Sequence record: MK573636
Strand: one strand, 5' to 3'
DNA: 64,000 nucleotides
Source of the DNA: Escherichia phage vB_EcoM_PHB13
Shown: positions 1,437 through 58,327 of the stretch, one piece after another
Numbering within the stretch: position 1 is the first letter of the stretch
How the letters are laid out: each line of letters opens with the position of its first letter
The notes under the pieces: model-generated
Database searches by the model: none
Seen by the model: only the letters and a program-made list of their open reading frames with translations
What the model was told of the DNA's origin: nothing
Translations under genes and position numbers: made by a program

Positions 1437-3680
1437 ATGATTAAAAATGTTGTTAAGTCTTCCGGTCTGACTGTTCCGTTTGAAAAAGAAAAAGTAATGA
1501 AAATTCTGGAAGCGGCAGCCGAAGGTCATAACGTTGATCCATATGAATTGTTTGATATGGTTGAACCACTTCTGACAGAAGGTATGTCTACCAATGATAT
1601 CCAGAAAGTATTGATTAAGGTCGCCGCAGATAACATTACTGTAGAAACGCCTGATTATCAATATGTAGCAAGTAACCTTGCAATGTTCGCTCTTCGTAAA
1701 TCAGTATACGGTCAATTCCAACCGATTGATTTTTATAGCCATATTGAGCGTAATATTGCAACCGGAAAATATGATCGTGAAATTCTGCAAAAGTATTCCC
1801 GTGAAGAAGTGGAATATCTGGAGAAATTCATCGACCATAAACTTGATTTTAAAATGACCTATGCTGGTGCGATGCAGTTAAAAGAGAAATATCTTGTTCA
1901 GGATCGCAGCACTAAGAAAATCATTGAAACACCGCAATTTGCGTATATGCTGATCGGTATGTGCTTGCATCAAGAAGAGACAGAAAATCGACTTGAACAT
2001 GTGATTGATTTTTATAATGCTGTTGCGAATAAGCAAATCTCTCTGCCTACTCCGATTATGGCAGGTGTGCGTACCCCAACACGCCAATTTAGTTCGTGTG
2101 TGGTGATTGAAAGTGATGACTCATTGCAGGGCATCAACGAAACAGCAAATGCAATCATCAAGTATATTAGCAAGCGTGCTGGTATCGGTATCAACGCTGG
2201 CATGATTCGCGCGGAAGGATCTAAGATCGGGCATGGTGAAGTTCGTCATACTGGCGTTATCCCATTCTGGAAACATTTTCAGACTGCCGTTAAGTCATGC
2301 TCACAAGGCGGTATTCGTGGCGGGGCGGCGACTCTCTATTACCCAATGTGGCATTTAGAGTTTGAAAGTCTTATTGTGTTGAAGAACAATAAGGGGGTGG
2401 AAGATAACCGCATTCGTCATCTTGATTACGGCGTACAGATTAATAACCTGATGGTAGAGCGATTCCTTAAACGGGATTACATTACTCTGTTTAGTCCAGA
2501 TGTTGCAGGTGGCTTGTTGTGGGATCTGTACTTCCGAGATGAGGAAGGTTTCCGCCAGCTTTACGAAAAACTGGAAAAAGATCCGAGTGTTCGTAAAACT
2601 CGTGTTAAAGCCGAAGACCTGTTTTTAGCGGTGGCAATTGAACGTTTTAACACTGGTCGAATCTATCCAGCGTTCACAGACAACATGAACAATCACGGGG
2701 CGTTTATTCGTAATGTAGCACCGATTAAACAATCCAACCTGTGTTGTGAAATTGCTCTGCCGACAAAACCGATGGGTCGTGATGATTCAGAGATCAGTCT
2801 ATGCACTTTGGCAGCATATGTTTTAGGAAACTTTGATATCGAAAATATGGAAGAAGTAGAACGCATTGCTATGGTTATGGTGCGTGCACTTGACAACCTG
2901 TTAGATTATCAGGATTATCCTGTAGAACAAGCTCTGACAGCCAAAAAACGTCGCTCTCTGGGTGTTGGCGTGACTAACTTTGCATCGTATCTCGCGGATA
3001 ATTTCTTCACATATGAAGACGCTAACGAGTTTACGCATAAAACGTTTGAACGCTTGCAATATGCTCTGATTAAGGCTAGTGTGCAACTAGCAAAAGAGAA
3101 GGGTACTTGCGAACTGATGCACGAAACACGTTATGGTCGCGGTGAACTGCCTATCGACTGGTACAAAAAGACAGTAGATGAACTGGTTGATCCGGTGTAT
3201 GAGATGGATTGGGAAGAACTGCGCGAAGACCTGAAAAAATATGGCATTCGTAACAGTACGCTTTCGGCTCTGATGCCTTGTGAGTCGTCTTCTCAGGTAT
3301 CTAACAGCACAAACGGTATTGAACCGCCTCGCGGGATTGTATCGGTTAAAGGATCAAAGGAAGGACAATTTAATCAGGTTATTCCGAACGTAGAGAATAA
3401 TGCTGATGTTATTGACCTGCTTTGGACACTGATCAAGAAAGGTAACAAGCCTTATCTGACACTGGCAGCGATTATGCAGAAGTTTGTAGATCAGGCGATT
3501 AGTTCCAATACATCCTATGATCCAAGCACTTATAAGACTGGTAAAGTCGATATTGCTGATGTGTTAGATGATATGTTGTTCGCTCAACATTACGGTCTGA
3601 AAACCCTGTATTATGCGAACGTTCGCGACGGTGCAGATGGTACGGAAGACGCTAGCGAGTGCTCATCTTGCAAGCTGTAA
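1437..3680 (+). CDS. nrdA: ribonucleotide reductase class Ia large subunit
   Basis: 747 aa; active-site NLCCEIALPT motif, C-terminal CSSC redox pair; strong Shine-Dalgarno GAGGT; T4 synteny td-nrdA-nrdB. Confidence 0.93.
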   Translation: MIKNVVKSSGLTVPFEKEKVMKILEAAAEGHNVDPYELFDMVEPLLTEGMSTNDIQKVLIKVAADNITVETPDYQYVASNLAMFALRKSVYGQFQPIDFYSHIERNIATGKYDREILQKYSREEVEYLEKFIDHKLDFKMTYAGAMQLKEKYLVQDRSTKKIIETPQFAYMLIGMCLHQEETENRLEHVIDFYNAVANKQISLPTPIMAGVRTPTRQFSSCVVIESDDSLQGINETANAIIKYISKRAGIGINAGMIRAEGSKIGHGEVRHTGVIPFWKHFQTAVKSCSQGGIRGGAATLYYPMWHLEFESLIVLKNNKGVEDNRIRHLDYGVQINNLMVERFLKRDYITLFSPDVAGGLLWDLYFRDEEGFRQLYEKLEKDPSVRKTRVKAEDLFLAVAIERFNTGRIYPAFTDNMNNHGAFIRNVAPIKQSNLCCEIALPTKPMGRDDSEISLCTLAAYVLGNFDIENMEEVERIAMVMVRALDNLLDYQDYPVEQALTAKKRRSLGVGVTNFASYLADNFFTYEDANEFTHKTFERLQYALIKASVQLAKEKGTCELMHETRYGRGELPIDWYKKTVDELVDPVYEMDWEELREDLKKYGIRNSTLSALMPCESSSQVSNSTNGIEPPRGIVSVKGSKEGQFNQVIPNVENNADVIDLLWTLIKKGNKPYLTLAAIMQKFVDQAISSNTSYDPSTYKTGKVDIADVLDDMLFAQHYGLKTLYYANVRDGADGTEDASECSSCKL

Positions 3681-3688
3681 AATAAGTG

Positions 3689-3717
3689 TTGACGCGGGGA
3701 GAAATCCCCGCTATAAT
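3689..3717 (+). promoter_or_regulatory. early sigma70-type promoter TTGACG-N17-TATAAT with spacer palindrome GCGGGGA-GAAA-TCCCCGC (PeSL-like)
   Basis: -35/-10 hexamers and inverted repeat read directly, immediately after nrdA stop. Confidence 0.6.
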
Positions 3718-3748
3718 ACAACCATCAAAAACAAGTGAGGATTTTATT

Positions 3749-3916
3749 ATGACCAAATTAAAATGTGTTGCTGTAGATTTTGAGCTAGCTGATAGCTTTG
3801 TTGTCGGTGATGTATATGATGCTCGACATGATGGGACTTGCTACTACGTTGAGGATGAATACGGCGTAGAATGGGCTATTCTTCCTGATGATAAATGTTT
3901 TGAGGTTGTCGGATAA
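3749..3916 (+). CDS. small hypothetical protein (55 aa)
   Basis: ATG after GTGAGGA SD downstream of promoter at 3689; ORF-track start 3686 lies inside the promoter and is rejected. Confidence 0.5.
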   Translation: MTKLKCVAVDFELADSFVVGDVYDARHDGTCYYVEDEYGVEWAILPDDKCFEVVG

Positions 3917-4089
3917 TGGCTACTGTATGGTTATTGATTGCAATCAGCAATTCAATGTATAATTACGGAAATATGTCAAGCATTGAGTTTGCAACAAAGC
4001 AGGATTGCGTTAAAGCTCGCGAGGTTATCCGCGAAGACAATAAACGCTTTATGAATCTGTACTGTGTTGAAAAGCAGAAGGTGAACTAA
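3916..4089 (+). CDS. small hypothetical protein (57 aa), tandem paralog 1 (MATVWLL...)
   Basis: ORF below 60-aa track cutoff; N-terminus MATVWLLIA; SD GGATAA; paralogous to next ORF. Confidence 0.45.
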   Translation: MATVWLLIAISNSMYNYGNMSSIEFATKQDCVKAREVIREDNKRFMNLYCVEKQKVN

Positions 4090-4256
4090 TGGCTACAATA
4101 TGGTTATTGCTTTCCGTTAGCGTAGGCGTATATAATAAAGGAACTGTTACCAGCGTAGAGTTTTCATCACATCAAAATTGTTTTGAAGCTGTGCAGGAAT
4201 TGCAGCAGGATAGCGAAATAAACAGAAATACTAAGTTCTTTTGTGTTAAAAAGTGA
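4089..4256 (+). CDS. small hypothetical protein (55 aa), tandem paralog 2 (MATIWLL...)
   Basis: Start overlaps previous stop (TAATG); shares MATxWLL, SVEF and FCV/YCV motifs with preceding ORF. Confidence 0.45.
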   Translation: MATIWLLLSVSVGVYNKGTVTSVEFSSHQNCFEAVQELQQDSEINRNTKFFCVKK

Positions 4257-4271
4257 TAGTGAGGTGAATTA

Positions 4272-5435
4272 ATGAGCGTATTTAATCGTGAACATGTTGA
4301 TATTATGAATGAACCGATGTTTCTGGGTAGTGGGTTGGGTATCGCTCGCTATGATATTCAGCGTCATCAAGTATTTGAAGAATTAATTGAAAAATCTCTG
4401 TCATTTTTCTGGCGTCCAGAAGAAATTTCACTCGCAACCGACCGTATTCAATATCTTAATATGTGTGACGTTGAAAAGCGTTTCTTTACCGAAAACTTGA
4501 AGTATCAGACATTACTTGATTCTATTCAAGGTCGCGCACCGTCCGCAGCATTTGGTCCAATTGTATCTGATCCGACTCTCGATACATGGTTGCAAACATG
4601 GACATTCAGCGAAACGATTCATAGCCGAAGCTATACACACATTATGCGTAACTGTTTCATTGATCCGGCTAGTGAGTTCGACCAGATCATCGATAACCCT
4701 GCTATCATGAAGCGAGCGGAATCTATCGGGCAATATTATGATGATGTTCTGGTGAAAATCCGTGAATACGAGGACGCTAAAGAAAGTTTTAGTCGTTCTT
4801 CTGAAAATGAATTTGACCTTGATGCATATTCTGATAGCATTTCGTACGTGGAAGAAACTAAACGCAATCTGATGGACTCACTCTATCTGTGTATGCATTG
4901 CGTTAATGCACTGGAAGCAATCCGTTTTTATGTGTCCTTTGCATGTACTTTCAGCTTTGCCGAACGTGGTTTACTGGAAGGTAACGCGAAGATCATGAAA
5001 TTTATTGCGCGTGATGAACAACTTCACTTAAAAGGAACACAATACATTATTCGTCAATGGCAAACGGGGGCTGATGGTGATGAGTGGAAACAGATTGCGG
5101 AAGAACTTGAAGACGAAGCAACGAAAATCTTTCTGGATGTTGTCGAGCAAGAAAAAGAATGGGTAGATCACTTATTCGCAATGGGGGCAATTCCTGGCTT
5201 GTCACCGGAAATTCTGAAAACCTATGTAGAATACCTGGCAGATTCCCGTATGCGTGCTGCCGGACTGAAAAGCCCGTTTAGTGTTCGTCGTCATCCGTTA
5301 CCGTGGATGCGTAAATGGTTGAACTCTGACGAAGTACAGAATGCAGCGCAGGAAGTAGAGATTATGTATCTGGTATCTCAGGTTAATACCGATTTAACAG
5401 ACGACGACTACAACCGATTCGGGAAATATCTATGA
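4272..5435 (+). CDS. nrdB: ribonucleotide reductase class Ia small subunit
   Basis: 387 aa; di-iron ligand motifs (ETIHSRSYTHI, EAIRFYVSF...ERGLLEGN); uninterrupted (no intron). Confidence 0.92.
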   Translation: MSVFNREHVDIMNEPMFLGSGLGIARYDIQRHQVFEELIEKSLSFFWRPEEISLATDRIQYLNMCDVEKRFFTENLKYQTLLDSIQGRAPSAAFGPIVSDPTLDTWLQTWTFSETIHSRSYTHIMRNCFIDPASEFDQIIDNPAIMKRAESIGQYYDDVLVKIREYEDAKESFSRSSENEFDLDAYSDSISYVEETKRNLMDSLYLCMHCVNALEAIRFYVSFACTFSFAERGLLEGNAKIMKFIARDEQLHLKGTQYIIRQWQTGADGDEWKQIAEELEDEATKIFLDVVEQEKEWVDHLFAMGAIPGLSPEILKTYVEYLADSRMRAAGLKSPFSVRRHPLPWMRKWLNSDEVQNAAQEVEIMYLVSQVNTDLTDDDYNRFGKYL

Positions 5436-18878: not shown

Positions 18879-18907
18879 TTGACATAAGATCGGGTGTATA
18901 GCATAAT
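18879..18907 (+). promoter_or_regulatory. PeSL early promoter TTGACA-N17-CATAAT (GGGTGTAT/ATACACCC stem)
   Basis: Direct reading. Confidence 0.6.
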
Positions 18908-18953
18908 ACACCCATCGAAACGAGATACACTTTCTAACTAGGAGAATCAAATT

Positions 18954-50738: not shown

Positions 50739-53059
<2,321 letters not shown>

Positions 53060-53072
53060 AATAAATTACCTC

Positions 53073-53906
53073 TTAAAACTCTCTTACAATACGTGGACCC
53101 GGTGGAGTTGGCGCAACTGGTATTGGAATATCACTAGAATATGATTCTTTGACAGTTCCGTCCCATTCTTCTTGCTCAACATCACGTTTAACGACCTCAT
53201 GATCCACTGATTCAAAATTACCGCTAGGATTTAATTCACGAGAATTAGCATGAAAATCAAGATAAATCGTTCTGATTTCCCCCTTAACGTCGGTGGCTGG
53301 AGGATAGATAAACCCGATGAACTCAAACATAATGGTCCACTCAAGACGACGACGAGAAAACTTATCTTCGCCTACCTGTTCATCTGGAGTGATAGAACTA
53401 ATTGTGACCTGAATATCTCGATCAATCCATACATCATTACCGTGTAGTTCTTTAATCTTACAGTTAAAATGAGGCTGGAAGTAAGGAAGAATCTGTTCAA
53501 TTATCTGAAACATATCATCTTCGCTACGCGTATAAATCCCTAACTCGAAAGTAAACTTATATGGTACAGGATTATATTGTGTTACGCTCCTGATTCCATC
53601 CGCTGTATATTTTGGTACTGTCTTATTTGCAATATTGGTTTTAAAGTTCTGGGCGTATGTCATATCAATCAAAGAAAGACACATACGCGGTAAAATAGTT
53701 TCTACCTTTGCTACGTCTTCCTCACTTGAGATATTGTTATATTTGTCCAGACTCATCATGAATTTTTCTTTCTTTGCGTAGGTAATTGGAACTTTAATAT
53801 AACGCTCACCGTCACTACGCACCCTTTTAATTTGTACGCCGGAGAATAAATTACCCAGCAATACAATATACCGTCTAATTGACGAATTATAGTGCCAACC
53901 GAACAT
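53073..53906 (-). CDS. gp15: tail sheath stabiliser / tail completion protein
   Basis: Start set at MFGWHYNSS (T4 gp15 begins MFGYFYNSS); track start 53936 is 10 codons upstream. Confidence 0.8.
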   Translation of the reverse strand: MFGWHYNSSIRRYIVLLGNLFSGVQIKRVRSDGERYIKVPITYAKKEKFMMSLDKYNNISSEEDVAKVETILPRMCLSLIDMTYAQNFKTNIANKTVPKYTADGIRSVTQYNPVPYKFTFELGIYTRSEDDMFQIIEQILPYFQPHFNCKIKELHGNDVWIDRDIQVTISSITPDEQVGEDKFSRRRLEWTIMFEFIGFIYPPATDVKGEIRTIYLDFHANSRELNPSGNFESVDHEVVKRDVEQEEWDGTVKESYSSDIPIPVAPTPPGPRIVREF

Positions 53907-53932
53907 TTGACCCCCTTGTTTATGAGTATTTA

Positions 53933-54673
53933 TCAAAAATTAGCAAAAGGTGAACCAGTGCCATTAATTGGATCAAATGGGTCAATAAAATCTTGTCCTT
54001 CGCTTCTGAATTGCTTATCTTCTTTGTACTGATCTAAGTTGATATCTGTTAACCCGTCCAGATTAGTGATCGGTGCAAGATCCAGATCCGCGAACTCATC
54101 AACGTTGATTCCCTCGTTGCGTTGTAATTCTGGTCGCAATTCCTCACCGCTATACACGAATTTCTCTGCAATGATTTTACGCATGGCATTTTTGCCAGCC
54201 TGAAAAAACGGCTGATATGGCTCGACGTAATTGATTTCAAATAAATCATTACTCATTGGAATATAAATCAAGTCACCTGATTTTGGCTCTTGATCATCTA
54301 CTTGATGTTTGAATAGGTTAGGATTAACCGTAAAAGTTAGTTCATCATTGGCTTGATAACCGAAACTAGAGAAGAAATTACCCGCGCCTTCATACCCATC
54401 AAATGAGTTAATATAAGCAGCAAATTTCCATGCTTTAGTAAATTTGCTTTGAACATCCTCGCCAAAGATCATGTCTGGTTTGACAAATTCACGAGGGATG
54501 TAATATAATTCTACACCTCGCATCTGAATAGCTTCGGCGACCATAACGTCGGCTAACGTCTGAGTATTTGTATATTTGTGAAAGTTCACATAAGGATTAA
54601 GAATCTCTGATTGTCGTGTATTCTCATAATCCTTTTGCGATTCAAGGCGAGCAAAAAGAGTGTTGTTAAACAT
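53933..54673 (-). CDS. gp14: neck protein
   Basis: 246 aa; synteny 13-14-15. Confidence 0.75.
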
Positions 54674-54682
54674 ATGTTACTC

Positions 54683-54700
54683 CAAATGGGGGAATACTCC
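54683..54700 (-). other. stem-loop GGGGGAGTATTCCCCC between GIY-YIG gene and gene 14
   Basis: Perfect 6-bp GC stem read directly. Confidence 0.45.
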
Positions 54701-54709
54701 CCCAATTTA

Positions 54710-55525
54710 TTAATCTACGAAGAAATAATTTTTGTTTTTATCGGTATTTGATTTAAGTCTTCCGACAATCAATCCTCGCTTAACGTTTAATTTTATAACA
54801 GCTTCTCCTATGCTATTGTATATCACTCCGTTGATGCTTATTCTTCTTGATCTAGTGCTAGTTATTCCGAGTCTAGATTTGCTAATTCTTTCTCTCCATT
54901 CTTTAGTAAAAACACGTCCGGTGTGTTTTTGTCTTATTTTATCTTTCACCTCATCGGATAACGATAGCCCCTTATGTGAATCAGACATTTTTCTTCTCGT
55001 TTCTTCTGTATGTCTTTTTCCTAAATTAATCATCCTTAACTTTTCTTTTGTCTCCTCTGCAATAACTTTTCCTAAGTTATTTTGTCTCATCTTTTCTTTT
55101 GTTTCTTCCGTGTGCTTCCTTCCCTTTTGAGATGCGGACATCTTTTGTCTTGCATCTTTAGTATGTTTCCTTCCGGTATTTTTCTCTGAGATCTTTTTTC
55201 TCATTTCTTCTATCTTTGCTTCATCAGAAACCTTCCACATACAAACAGTGCCACCGCCTTCTGCTATATTATATGTGTCTTCTCTCCTGACAAAATCAAC
55301 CGTAACAATCCTTGCCTCTTCTTTATCCGCATCTTCTCTGCTATCAAATTTTGACAATATCTCTTTAGTGAAATTTTCTAATCCGTGATGCTTAATAGCT
55401 TGTTTTATTATTTTTCCACTTCCCATGTATTTTGTATCGTCTTCTGCCAATCCATCACAAGACCGAACACCTACGTAAATCTTATCGTTTATTTTGTTGG
55501 TTATTTTGTATACATAATGTTCCAT
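54710..55525 (-). CDS. GIY-YIG homing endonuclease (Seg-like) with three NUMOD3 repeats
   Basis: GIY-YIG core YVYKITNKINDKIYVG...NIAEGG; three RKHTEETKEKM-type repeats; sits between genes 13 and 14. Confidence 0.75.
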   Translation of the reverse strand: MEHYVYKITNKINDKIYVGVRSCDGLAEDDTKYMGSGKIIKQAIKHHGLENFTKEILSKFDSREDADKEEARIVTVDFVRREDTYNIAEGGGTVCMWKVSDEAKIEEMRKKISEKNTGRKHTKDARQKMSASQKGRKHTEETKEKMRQNNLGKVIAEETKEKLRMINLGKRHTEETRRKMSDSHKGLSLSDEVKDKIRQKHTGRVFTKEWRERISKSRLGITSTRSRRISINGVIYNSIGEAVIKLNVKRGLIVGRLKSNTDKNKNYFFVD

Positions 55526-55578
55526 TTAGTATCTCCGATATAACATAGGGTATATGATAACATATACCCATATTTATT

Positions 55579-56511
55579 TTATATCATTAGTATACCAAAT
55601 GGTGGATCTAAGTCAAGTAATTCTTGTCGTAATTTCTCAATATCCGCGCGTGCTTCTTCGATGATTCTGACACCATCAACTGTTACACCACCTGGTAATT
55701 GCAACCCTTGATGTTTAGCTAAGATCTGCCCCCATAGCTCACGAGTAAACGCGGTCGCGCAGTCTTTAACCCAGCGGTTATTATATGCGCCCTGCTTGTT
55801 CTCACTGATCGGTCCCATGCCAGCAACAATCCCGCTTAAACCAGCAGTTGGATTATCATAAACGGCGCTAATCCCGCCAGCGGTAGAACATCCTCCAGCA
55901 TGAGCATAACCAGCAACCGCGCCGATCATATCAGGAACGTCTACATAGCTTTTAACATATAATTCAACAACAATGAGATCACCTTCTCGGAAGTTTCCTG
56001 TAATCTTAAGTTGTCCGTTTGCGCTATTATACCAATAGTCTGGCAGTGGATTAAGCATATTTTGCATAGTGGCTCGATAGCTCATAAGCTGTTCGAAATA
56101 TCCTAGATCACCGCCCATTGCATTTGGACCATAAAATTTACTACATCCAGATCCTAAACCGCCATTTACACCAGCTAAACCCAACAGAAAGTCAGTAAAC
56201 CACGGATAAACGGCAGTGCCATCCATCGTAGCCGCGCTACCTACGTTTGTTCTAATTATTTTAGTTACTGCGAATACCCCAGAATCGCTTAAATCAAATA
56301 CCCCGTGTTGCGCTTGCTCTGCACTAACACGAAATACTTTATATCCTTTATTCACACCATCGAAATGATATTCCCCATAGAGTTCTAATGCTCTCTGAAT
56401 ACAATCGTAAATCTGGTCTTCTGTTACTTCTACGTTAATTACTGGTGCGCCTAAACGACGCAGAATAGCGTCTTTTAATTCTCTTGGGTTATTTGTTACA
56501 TATCCTGACAT
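55579..56511 (-). CDS. gp13: neck protein
   Basis: 310 aa, N-terminus near-identical to T4 gp13 ([37 protein letters not shown]). Confidence 0.92.
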
Positions 56512-56532
56512 AATATCACCTATAAACGAAAA

Positions 56533-56557
56533 AGGGGCTTAACGCCCCTTTAATTTC
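56533..56557 (-). terminator. terminator-like hairpin (GGGGCGTTAAGCCCC + TTTT) between wac and gene 13
   Basis: Same hairpin family as + strand 19247 and 23024, here on - strand. Confidence 0.5.
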
Positions 56558-58327
56558 TTATACCGGAGAAATTCCAAAGAGGAACTCTTTAATTTGTAGC
56601 TGTTGCGCTAATGCTTCTTCGGATACGCCCTTAATGCGAATATCGATCCGGTCGCCCTTTTCAATATTTAGGAAAGCACTGGTAGAATAGCTAATTAAAT
56701 CATCAGCTCCATAATGACCATTTCGTACCTCATGTACAATCAGACCATTTTTAGCAATACCGACTACGAAAGTAGCGTTATGTGCCGCATTTACAGAACA
56801 ACGGAAATCACAACGGAATAAGCCTTTGTCGTTAACCGTAACAAGAGATTCGCTCTTAACCATTCCACGCGCAGGAACTTCTTCGGTCATATCGTTTAGC
56901 GGAATCGGTTTATAAACATCCTGTTCGTCAAGTTCAACCGTAATATCTGCGGTATTTTTAAATGCTCCAGCAGCATATGCAACTTGCACCCATTCGCCGT
57001 GCTTACGCAGATAATGAAAACCGTCATCAGGTACATCATCTACTTTGTTTCCGTTAGATGTTTGTAGCTCTTTGACGATTTTAATCACGCCTTTCTGAGT
57101 AAATGGATCTTCTGAACCATCATCGCCATAGATATCACTTGATAGTTTAATAACGCCAGCGGTCAAACCTGATTCGCGATCACCTACAAGCTGTTCCATG
57201 TCCTGTACGCTTGCTTCTAACCGACCCTGAGTGTTTTCTACAACTTTAATACGTCCGGCTAGAGTATGTCGATCGCTGTCAGTGCCAATCTCATTGGAAA
57301 GTCGAACAACTTCACCGCGCAAACCGTCAGCACCGCTTACACCAACAACCTGTTTAAGATCTAAAAATTCTCGCTCTGTGTTGGTTAATCGATAATCAAT
57401 GCTTCCAGCCGATTGAGGCGTTCCGATCTTATTCTCGACAGCCAGAAGACGAGGACGAATACCGGAATCTACACCATTAACATCATTGTTTAGACGTTCA
57501 TAATTAGTTCCCAGCGTAGTGACTTTAGTCCCGATATCAGGGATTGAATCAAACAAAATTGCTTTCTTGACTTCTAGAACTTCGTTTGATAAGTTAGCAA
57601 TGTTTCTTGCGTTGGTGCGGAGACGAACATACACATTTTCTTGTGTTGCAAGAGACGTGTCGCCGATCTCACTGCGCATTTTGTTAACTTGTCTTGTTAA
57701 CTCGCCTACGTCAGAATCTTGCCAGTCGTTTTCAAGCTGAACGATTCGGCGACCGTGGTCATTTAATGCTGCGGTATTCTGAATAACTCGGTATTTGATG
57801 CCAGAACCGGAACTGCCAGCATCAGGGGAACCATTGATATTAAAGTTAGGATAAGAACCCATTTCTTGTTTGATGAAAGAAATGTCATCATAGATTGTTC
57901 TTGTGCTAGGATCGGCAGCGGGGCGATCACCAATCTTGATGTTAAGTTCTGATACAGCGTCTACCGTTGTTTGCAGAGTTCTTGCTGTTTCTCCTAAGTT
58001 CTCTTCGACGGATTCAACTTTTGCGACAGTCTGGTTAACCACATCAATGATACTTCCGTCAGAAATTACCCCTAAAGTTGTTTTAATATCGTTAACCGCC
58101 GTTACAACCTCGTTAACTTTAGCGACGGTTGATTTTGCGTTTTCGTTTACGCGTGCAACGTTTTCTTGAATTGCAACAGGGGCGCGGTTAAGCGTCCCGT
58201 CATTGCCAGTCTGTGTCGTTGCTGCGCTTAAACATTCGCCATTCTTGATCCAGTTAATACGGTGCTGTCCTTCGCTTGGTACACCGTCAACATGTGGGAT
58301 CTCGTGGATGTTTAATTGTTCAATCAT
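56558..58327 (-). CDS. wac: fibritin (whiskers) with extra C-terminal domain
   Basis: N-terminus matches T4 fibritin (VDGVPSEGQHRINWIKNGE); foldon-like YLRKHGEWV is followed by ~140 more residues. Confidence 0.85.
   Translation of the reverse strand: MIEQLNIHEIPHVDGVPSEGQHRINWIKNGECLSAATTQTGNDGTLNRAPVAIQENVARVNENAKSTVAKVNEVVTAVNDIKTTLGVISDGSIIDVVNQTVAKVESVEENLGETARTLQTTVDAVSELNIKIGDRPAADPSTRTIYDDISFIKQEMGSYPNFNINGSPDAGSSGSGIKYRVIQNTAALNDHGRRIVQLENDWQDSDVGELTRQVNKMRSEIGDTSLATQENVYVRLRTNARNIANLSNEVLEVKKAILFDSIPDIGTKVTTLGTNYERLNNDVNGVDSGIRPRLLAVENKIGTPQSAGSIDYRLTNTEREFLDLKQVVGVSGADGLRGEVVRLSNEIGTDSDRHTLAGRIKVVENTQGRLEASVQDMEQLVGDRESGLTAGVIKLSSDIYGDDGSEDPFTQKGVIKIVKELQTSNGNKVDDVPDDGFHYLRKHGEWVQVAYAAGAFKNTADITVELDEQDVYKPIPLNDMTEEVPARGMVKSESLVTVNDKGLFRCDFRCSVNAAHNATFVVGIAKNGLIVHEVRNGHYGADDLISYSTSAFLNIEKGDRIDIRIKGVSEEALAQQLQIKEFLFGISPV

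Follow-up and report, generated by a model that had tools for sequence, protein, structure and literature searches.

The closest described parallels to the gene discussed here are found among the homing endonuclease genes (HEGs) of T4-type phages. I-TevI, encoded in the td intron of T4, consists of a GIY-YIG catalytic domain with characteristic Tyr, Tyr-x-Gly, Glu and Asn residues (structures 1mk0 and 1ln0), a flexible linker and a C-terminal helix-turn-helix DNA-binding part (1i3j); the T4 enzymes SegA to SegG are free-standing and bring about intronless homing or marker exclusion, and T4 seg genes occur in structural regions, segD between genes 23 and 24 and segC between 5.1 and 5.3 (PMC2988022). 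A regulatory feature known for T4 HEGs (I-TevI, I-TevII, I-TevIII, segB, Aeh1 mobE) is a ribosome-binding site (RBS) that is hidden on read-through RNA and free on the gene's own transcript, and for segA and segG the promoter is located in the 3' end of the upstream gene (PMC2988022). Mobile units of another type have been described for phages RB49 and phi1, whose cassettes with a sigma70 promoter and stem-loop ends, often of the GGGG..CCCC type, recombine and form mini-circles, with crossovers even in the loop (promoter-stem-loop or PeSL elements; Arbiol et al. 2010, PMC2839356). Here we analysed a genome segment of 64,000 nucleotides (nt) from Escherichia phage vB_EcoM_PHB13 (MK573636), below called the window, which represents a Krischvirus (an RB49-like, T4-type coliphage) and carries its late structural genes on the minus strand. 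Between genes 13 and 14 it contains an additional gene, here named seg, which, judging from sequence comparisons, is probably a free-standing Seg-type (I-TevI-like GIY-YIG) HEG cassette in the 13/14 spacer that has spread by homing and has predicted regulation of its own.

With the T4 Seg endonucleases the window's gene shares its free-standing position in a spacer, an orientation identical to that of its neighbours and a polymorphic presence and absence; its product matches the Pfam family SegE_GIY-YIG, and as in segA and segG a candidate promoter is located in the 3' end of the upstream gene. The locus itself differs from those of the T4 Segs, as genes 13 and 14 are uninterrupted in T4, where they are 1 nt apart. 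I-TevI is similar in its order of domains, and its regulation (PMC2988022) would be matched by a predicted RBS-hiding stem with a candidate promoter inside. Unlike I-TevI, however, seg is not intron-encoded, its product shows ~24% identity to I-TevI and has a linker of six NUMOD3 repeats instead of a zinc finger and a minor-groove helix, and its candidate internal promoter is sigma70-like and early, whereas I-TevI has a late promoter and the late motif at seg is at best a 7/8 match. GenBank records of relatives already name the gene "putative Seg-like homing endonuclease, GIY-YIG family", and a literature search retrieved no paper on this 13/14 Seg, its site or its regulation. The gene challenges no current concept and is an ordinary example of its kind. 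Krischviruses lack the middle-mode transcription of T4 and are used in phage therapy collections.

Identity of the seg protein

The seg open reading frame (ORF; 54710-55525, minus strand) starts with ATG (55523-55525), ends with TAA, encodes 271 amino acids and is located in the intergenic spacer between the gene 13 stop codon and the gene 14 start codon. Its Shine-Dalgarno (SD) sequence GGAG (55533-55536, minus strand) lies 7 nt upstream of the ATG and is annotated as RBS in phages Makalu_001 and Makalu_002. The identical protein is annotated in vB_EcoM_PHB13 as QBQ74368.1. An Rfam scan (E <= 1) revealed no group I intron or other relevant RNA family in the region 52000-58000, and seg is therefore regarded as free-standing; a paralogue elsewhere in the window was not found by tblastn.

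Compared with Pfam, the protein matches NUMOD3 (PF07460; 44.8 bits, cutoff 20.4), I-TevI_DNA-bd (PF20987; 28.1 bits, cutoff 27) and SegE_GIY-YIG (26.6 bits, cutoff 25); it also scores 77.9 bits against the NCBIfam model TIGR01453 (group I intron endonuclease; cutoff 56.05) and matches PHROG 314 (homing endonuclease) with E = 4.6e-59. Domain and family matches together with a structural model place a GIY-YIG catalytic domain at about residues 1-95, six NUMOD3-type helical repeats at about 102-220 and an I-TevI-type C-terminal DNA-binding domain at about 225-271. In an alignment with 49 database homologues (50 sequences), Y6, Y17, G19, E70 and G91 are invariant and N86 is present in 49; the GIY and YIG motifs take the form YVY (Y6) and IYVG (Y17, G19), and a conserved Y33-x-G35-S-G37 motif is found in this subfamily in place of the Arg after YIG. 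Profile alignment with residues 1-99 of I-TevI (hhalign; probability 95.9%, E = 6e-9) pairs Y6, Y17-V-G19, E70 and N86 with Y6, Y17-V-G19, E75 and N90 of I-TevI, whose query sequence was checked and is 100% identical to annotated I-TevI genes.

The AlphaFold2 (AF2) model of the protein has a mean predicted local distance difference test score (pLDDT) of 91.4, with values of 95-98 over residues 1-90, and consists of an alpha/beta domain at the N-terminus, followed by six regular helical repeats (102-220) and a small domain at the C-terminus. In a Foldseek search of the PDB it is best matched by the DNA-binding domain (1i3j) and the catalytic domain (1mk0) of I-TevI, both with a probability of 1.00; for 1mk0 the target template-modelling (TM) score is 0.63, with 97/97 columns aligned. 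A phmmer search of the PDB sequences gave a marginal match only (1i3j, E = 0.2), so that comparison at the level of folds and profiles was required. Based on the Pfam, NCBIfam, hhalign and AF2/Foldseek matches, the protein is identified as an I-TevI-like GIY-YIG endonuclease, and its sequence and model display both parts of the I-TevI/Seg-type GIY-YIG homing endonuclease architecture in full. Identity to database proteins beyond the 90% cluster is at most ~35-43%, and a scan of IMG/VR yielded distant relatives only (32-47% identity over parts of the protein) and no extra copies.

Insertion between genes 13 and 14

Gene 13 (55579-56511, minus strand) is the 5' neighbour of the seg ORF, and gene 14 (53933-54673, minus strand), whose product matches T4_neck-protein (gp14), is its 3' neighbour. 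We compared the region 53900-56600 with 50,697 phage records by megablast and regarded as relatives the 59 records with at least 80% identity. The full query is covered in only six of them, namely Ec_Makalu_001, Ec_Makalu_002, KFS-EC (two records), MIZ4 and MIZ5; the other relatives, including RB49, GEC-3S, ELT4 and JEP8, match in two pieces that skip the seg ORF. In the insert-less genomes genes 13 and 14 are separated by a spacer of 36-38 nt (36 nt in RB49), and the precise edges of their alignments to the window are located at 54706/54707 and 55582/55583. The RB49 junction reads ...ATGATT TGA TTTATT GGGGGAGTATTCCCCC ATTTGGAGTAACAT ATG; the 6 nt TTTATT in this junction correspond to the 875 nt of the seg cassette proper in the window (54704-55578, minus strand), which amounts to a net insertion of ~870 bp. 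By this comparison of junctions, the seg cassette has been inserted with respect to T4 and the majority of close relatives. The 90% cluster of the seg protein comprises 13 members on 13 contigs, with the order gp13-seg-gp14 in every locus that was fetched. Carriers of seg are otherwise ~95-97% identical to non-carriers, and the cassette is always found at exactly this site.

An earlier note on this DNA, made from the letters alone, had proposed a free-standing GIY-YIG/NUMOD3 homing endonuclease gene inserted between genes 13 and 14 and had suggested a comparison of this junction with that of insert-less relatives. Both proposals are borne out, the identity of the gene by the domain, profile and fold matches, and the insertion, relative to T4 as well as to most close relatives, by its sharp edges and its presence in only 6/59 records, with ~870 bp missing in ~50 relatives.

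Selection and divergence

The 14 available seg copies represent 12 nucleotide alleles, none of which contains a frameshift or a premature stop. Among 45 polymorphic codons 35 are purely synonymous, and the pooled ratio of nonsynonymous to synonymous polymorphism (pN/pS) is 0.05; purifying selection on the seg ORF is strong. A comparison of the three genes within one set of eight genomes gave synonymous divergence (pS) values of 0.080 (seg), 0.21 (gene 13) and 0.36 (gene 14). As its silent-site divergence is 2.6-4.5 times lower than that of the neighbouring genes, the cassette is younger than the backbone, which matches the expectation for horizontal spread. Its arrival was not a single very recent event.

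The presence of seg is discordant with the phylogeny of the flanks. For example, the seg-containing window does not differ from the seg-less phages ELT4 and JEP8 in the 1100 nt preceding position ~1105 of gene 13, after which an abrupt switch follows, and Makalu_001, which carries seg, groups further upstream with RB49 and with Makalu_003, which does not.

The recoded 3' tail of gene 13

The gene 13 tail was compared between five genomes with seg (seg+) and seven without it (seg-), and a base was considered diagnostic if it was present in all seg+ and absent from all seg- genomes. Diagnostic columns are confined to the final 39 nt of gene 13; the following 1300 nt contain none. This recoded tail (55579-55617, minus strand) travels with the cassette and is a candidate target-site immunity or co-conversion tract. 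It reads TTACTTGACTTAGATCCACCATTTGGTATACTAATGATATAA in the seg+ allele, where it is invariant in 14/14 copies, and CTAGAATTATTAGATCCTCCGTTCGGCATCCTCATGATTTGA in the seg- allele. At the protein level the recoding only changes ELELLD to ELLDLD; the stop codon changes from TGA to TAA, and the rest is silent. Eight substitutions, all in the last 25 nt (55603, 55600, 55597, 55594, 55591, 55588, 55582 and 55580), are strictly linked to seg, seven of them at silent third-codon positions and one representing the change of the stop codon. A first count of 14 diagnostic substitutions was too generous, as CTTGAC (55612-55617) is also present in JSE, a phage with an empty site.

A cluster of mostly silent differences beside an HEG is the classic signature of a resistant, co-converted target site. 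We infer that the stretch recoded in the gene 13 tail, or the sequence directly beside it, is where the enzyme recognises or cuts the empty allele, and the recoded tail is predicted to confer self-immunity. Donor-type sequence extends over 39 nt in the Makalu, KFS-EC and MIZ4 phages and over at least 195 nt in the window, and tracts of such varying length may have arisen as a product of cleavage. Two further observations in this region were discarded. A CNNNG motif (CTCCG) 22-26 nt upstream of the gene 13 stop codon in empty alleles is destroyed in seg+ alleles; as an I-TevI-like cleavage motif it was disregarded, since a CNNNG is expected by chance at roughly one in 16 positions. In addition, the 3' end of seg, GATTAATAAATT, is similar to the 3' end of gene 13 in empty alleles, GATTTGATTTATT, and this similarity is too short to be interpreted.

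The two palindromes

The spacer sequences on both sides of the seg ORF contain palindromes. The cassette hairpin, GGGTATAT-GATAAC-ATATACCC as read on the plus strand (55548-55569; gene strand minus), is located between the gene 13 stop codon and the seg start codon and has a perfect 9-bp stem (GGGTATATG/CATATACCC) and a 4-nt loop, with GTTATC on the gene strand. Its predicted fold (free energy, dG, -12.9; z-score, z, -3.7) is terminator-like, and stems of at least 9 bp occur at only five loci in the 64 kb, including this one (7 instances compared with 1.9 expected from dinucleotide shuffles). This upstream hairpin belongs to the cassette and is part of its regulatory leader. Its loop is found in both orientations, GTTATC in ten and GATAAC in four of the 14 seg+ copies, while the stem is unchanged. 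Together with a linked T/A single-nucleotide polymorphism (SNP) the loop flip defines three haplotypes, for which one flip event suffices. Small loop inversions of this kind are typical of template switching at hairpins or cruciforms.

The second palindrome, GGGGGAGTATTCCCCC on the gene strand (54688-54703, minus strand), lies between the seg stop codon and the gene 14 start codon, upstream of the gene 14 SD sequence. RB49, JSE and other phages without the insert carry an identical copy at the same position, and by this comparison it is native sequence of the 13/14 spacer and neither a scar nor a terminal repeat of the insert. Its RNA fold is not unusual alone (dG -12.9, z -1.3); this GGGGG hairpin has a 7-bp stem, and stems of at least 7 bp are found 65 times in the window, with 31.7 expected. 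An element in the early region of the window (18879-18913, plus strand), in which TTGACA-17-CATAAT overlaps the hairpin GGGTGTAT-AGCATA-ATACACCC, resembles the published PeSL motif, and its stem is superficially like that of the seg leader hairpin.

The earlier note had given the inserted gene the coordinates 54683-55560 and had taken flanking palindromes as a sign of a recent mobile-element insertion. While the gene is indeed located between genes 13 and 14, its strand was omitted and the end at 55560 splits the cassette hairpin. Both palindromes exist at 54688-54703 and 55548-55569; the argument drawn from them fails, one being native and the other belonging to the cassette leader, and they are unrelated in sequence and no terminal repeats. 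The view of a mobile element is nevertheless supported by patchy presence, precise boundaries, lower synonymous divergence, mosaic flanks and the recoded target region. That the insertion is recent holds in so far as the cassette is younger than the backbone genes, but its 12 alleles differ by ~8% at synonymous sites and it has thus been circulating for some time.

Predicted regulation of seg

The last codons of gene 13 contain a predicted sigma70-like promoter (TTGACT-16 nt-TATACT with TG at -15/-14; 55589-55616, minus strand; 10/12 matches plus the TG). Empty alleles have ATTATT...CATCCT at the promoter-like positions, and promoter-like matches are less frequent in the surrounding 6 kb than expected (7 compared with 15.3). 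The early region of the phage is rich in promoters of the TTGACA-17-TATAAT type, and such sigma70 promoters drive early genes in RB49-type phages (PMC2839356). A candidate late promoter, AATAAATA (55571-55578, minus strand), is predicted directly after the gene 13 stop codon; it matches the T4-type sequence TATAAATA at 7/8 positions and is absent from insert-less relatives. A comparable variant at the first position, GATAAATA, is present in the window's 26-nt spacer between genes 14 and 15 (53927-53934).

In addition, a long-range RNA stem is predicted (55522-55602, minus strand), in which the end of gene 13 (55579-55602, ~22 nt) pairs with the region of the seg SD sequence and AUG (55522-55543) and which encloses the 9-bp cassette hairpin. 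The fold of 55600-55470 has a dG of -27.8 (z -3.1), and the same fold is obtained for Makalu_001, whereas the empty RB49 junction shows no significant structure (z -0.1). The pairing requires four of the eight seg-linked substitutions. The stem is predicted only on read-through transcripts, on which the translation-initiation region is unpaired with a mean probability of 0.13 and the AUG with one of 0.0; for RNAs starting at 55582 or 55565, the predicted +1 positions of the candidate promoters, the corresponding value is 0.59, and the GAG of the SD sequence reaches 0.94-0.99. The 100-nt leader is invariant in the 14 copies apart from the loop flip and one SNP. For a 53-nt leader these two differences compare with ~10 polymorphic sites expected at the silent-site rate of the ORF; the probability of such invariance is ~0.001 if the flip is counted as one event, or 0.05 if it is counted as four sites. 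From sequence and folding models, the recoded tail is predicted to contain a sigma70-like promoter and to supply the 5' arm of the RBS-hiding stem.

Other Seg genes at the neck block

At the same 13/14 site phage E26 (MN655998) encodes a different Seg-like GIY-YIG/NUMOD3 ORF (QHB48747.1), which was found in E26 only (one record of the collection). Its product is the closest homologue of the window's protein outside the orthologue cluster, with 37% identity overall and ~63% in the catalytic domain; it is annotated with 311 amino acids and probably starts at M14, the annotated start being 13 codons too early. Besides their site and the order of protein domains, the two cassettes have in common that the gene 13 tail is recoded and that a sigma70-like promoter sequence, an inner hairpin and an outer stem between this tail and the seg AUG are predicted. 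The E26 tail represents a third version of this sequence, the leader is unrelated in sequence and has its promoter-like GTTTAC-18-TATAAT inside the inner hairpin, and an analogous nested fold (z -3.2) is predicted, with the seg AUG paired to the gene 13 tail. Unlike in the window, the SD sequence is unsequestered in this predicted fold, and the E26 cassette replaces the GGGGG hairpin, recodes the first 18 nt of gene 14 and overlaps its start. The C-terminal half of the E26 Seg is diverged, implying a different DNA-binding specificity.

Although they carry different seg genes, the window and E26 are identical in the flanks of the cassette, over at least 155 nt upstream of the tail and ~380 nt downstream (gene 14 nt 19-400). 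The upstream patch in gene 13 (55620-55774, minus strand) is a mosaic flank with 28 consecutive informative sites shared with E26; other seg+ phages are RB49-like here and unlike the window. Identical flanks around different seg genes suggest a recent cassette swap. As proof that the window's cassette replaced one of E26 type, however, these flanks are weakened by JSE, whose site is empty and whose gene 13 patch is 97% identical; the upstream flank is explained equally well if the cassette homed into an empty allele of JSE/E26 type. The swap is still favoured by the downstream flank, which is identical to E26 only. Like the gene 13 patch, the gene 14 segment 54274-54655 is identical to E26 and unlike most other Krischviruses, and this local mosaicism brackets the HEG site; an "E-type patch" on the downstream side was in part produced by the choice of Makalu_002 as reference.

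A third Seg-like gene is located between genes 14 and 15 in MIZ4/5, JSE, Phi1, ECD7 and kvi and is not present in the window. It encodes an I-TevI_DNA-bd domain with a weak SegE_GIY-YIG match (1342-2097 in the extracted MIZ4 locus, 386-1141 in that of JSE) and is preceded by the extended -10 motif TGATATAAT. Because Segs are found at 13/14 and another at 14/15 in several Krischviruses, the neck-gene block 13-14-15 is, by its gene content, a hot spot for homing endonuclease genes. This hot spot bears on the reading of recombination boundaries and mosaicism in these therapeutic phages. As the site occurs in three states (empty, or occupied by Seg type A or B) and sequenced donors and recipients are at least 95% identical, the locus also offers a well-delimited natural system of presence, absence and replacement for the study of intronless homing.

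Proposed homing and alternative explanations

The mechanism that we consider probable starts with a mixed infection, in which the enzyme would cut the empty 13/14 junction of a seg-less phage, with the cut probably within the final ~25-40 bp of gene 13 or directly adjacent. The break would be repaired from the seg+ genome, and the cassette would be copied together with a variable amount of flanking DNA. Such repair-driven spread is known as intronless homing or marker exclusion. The seg+ allele itself would be protected, as its site is split by the insert and changed by eight mostly silent substitutions linked to seg. In late mRNA that reads through from the wac-13 operon, the tail arm would pair with the seg SD sequence and AUG, and seg would be translated only from its own short transcripts, as is known for I-TevI, segB and Aeh1 mobE. 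Both the predicted target in the last ~25-40 bp of gene 13 and the promoter/RBS switch are directly testable.

Several observations weigh against parts of this explanation. At the protein level, the nearest characterised enzymes are less than ~25-35% identical to the seg product, R27 of I-TevI falls in a gapped stretch of the hhalign alignment, and R21 of the seg protein is conserved in only 10/50 sequences. With respect to regulation, the sigma70-like promoter is a 10/12 match, and consensus scans are no evidence of function; its -35 element (CTTGAC) is also found in JSE with its empty site, so that part of the "promoter" is merely a gene 13 allele. AATAAATA deviates from the T4 late consensus at position 1, and HEG-specific promoters in T4 are middle or late, never early (PMC2988022). 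The outer stem is invariant in 14/14 copies, so that no covariation signal can be obtained from it, and the analogous fold in E26 hides the AUG and leaves the SD sequence accessible. Finally, mosaic flanks are common among these phages and may arise independently of an endonuclease.

An unlikely alternative is that the cassette is moved by PeSL-type homologous recombination, as proposed for ORFan cassettes of RB49 and phi1, and not by breaks that an endonuclease makes, with seg as cargo and the native GGGG..CCCC hairpin as the recombination site. RB49 and phi1 belong to the same genus as the window's phage, and their PeSL cassettes likewise combine a sigma70-like promoter and a stem-loop in front of a small accessory gene. 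The 5' end of the seg cassette has such a promoter and stem-loop, the loop of which is flipped among copies, and its downstream edge adjoins the GGGGG..CCCCC hairpin. However, the two hairpins share no sequence and cannot recombine with each other. The combination by which PeSLs are defined (an intergenic sigma70 promoter, AT-rich sequence upstream, a G/C stem-loop and a hyperplastic region; PMC2839356) is not found at the seg locus, where the promoter-like sequence is embedded in the final codons of gene 13, the hairpin of the cassette is rich in A and T and the site belongs to the conserved structural core; only the native GGGGG..CCCCC hairpin is PeSL-like. Moreover, the cargo is an intact, selected, site-specific endonuclease (pN/pS 0.05), which itself explains site-specific spread, and a recoded target-like tract beside the insert is predicted by homing and not by PeSL shuffling. 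It is similarly improbable that seg is no longer, or not only, selfish and is kept for the benefit of the phage, either by excluding the neck alleles of co-infecting relatives or as a DNA-binding regulator of the 13-14 late operon. Such a role would fit the location of the cassette within an essential late operon, the invariant leader and the strong purifying selection that acts on the entire ORF, DNA-binding domain included, and I-TevI provides a precedent as dual endonuclease and repressor (PMC2988022). Purifying selection is equally expected, though, for an actively homing element in a recombining population, and ~90% of close relatives keep the same 13-14 operon without seg, which is thus dispensable. 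Upstream of seg no operator-like copy of the sequence of the empty site came to light, although no search aimed at one was made.

Least credible among the alternatives is that seg is ancestral at 13/14 and was lost from most Krischviruses by deletion during vertical inheritance. The occurrence of two diverged Seg lineages (37% overall, ~63% in the N-terminal domain) at the same site does suggest long occupancy, but loss is hard to reconcile with the 2.6- to 4.5-fold lower divergence of seg at silent sites compared with genes 13 and 14, with a seg-less junction that is uniform and free of remnants in ~50 genomes, with the adjacent genes 13 and 14 of T4, and with the identity of the seg+ window to the seg-less ELT4 and JEP8 over 1100 nt next to the site. 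Homing of a Seg-type cassette thus remains the preferred explanation. A more far-reaching version of it, which we regard as tentative, reads the gene 13 tail as an overlapping code and combines this with an exchange of two Seg lineages at one site. The ~40-nt tail may comprise four layers, namely the C-terminus of gp13, a sigma70 early promoter, the stem arm that silences seg, and self-immunity, and the rival lineages of window type and E26 type may swap precisely at one site between identical flanks. If true, the swap would represent homing into an occupied site or direct competition of one HEG against another, and the promoter would belong to an early HEG-specific class not seen in T4.

Neighbouring genes and further features

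The gene order in this part of the window is wac-13-seg-14-15-16-17. Gene 13 is preceded by wac (56558-58327, minus strand), and gene 14 is followed by gene 15 (53073-53906, minus strand), which matches T4-gp15_tss, with genes 16 and 17 beyond. Between wac and gene 13 (56531-56551) there is a terminator-like bidirectional hairpin, AAAGGGGC-loop-GCCCCTTT, for which the annotations of GEC-3S, G2248 and the Makalu phages give a terminator. A perfect 12/12 match to the sigma70 consensus (TTGACA-18 nt-TATAAT; 54480-54509, plus strand) is located inside gene 14 in antisense orientation, directed towards the start of gene 14 and the antisense strand of seg. The same sequence is found in 12/12 relatives, irrespective of the presence of seg, and it is thus a feature of the backbone. 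Gene 17 of the window (50742-52565) is without the ~990-bp insertion found in the large terminase gene of Makalu_002 and Makalu_003; this insertion (in the extracted loci 1850-4666, corresponding to about position 52075 of the window) is in frame, encodes a LAGLIDADG_3 domain and is probably an intein.

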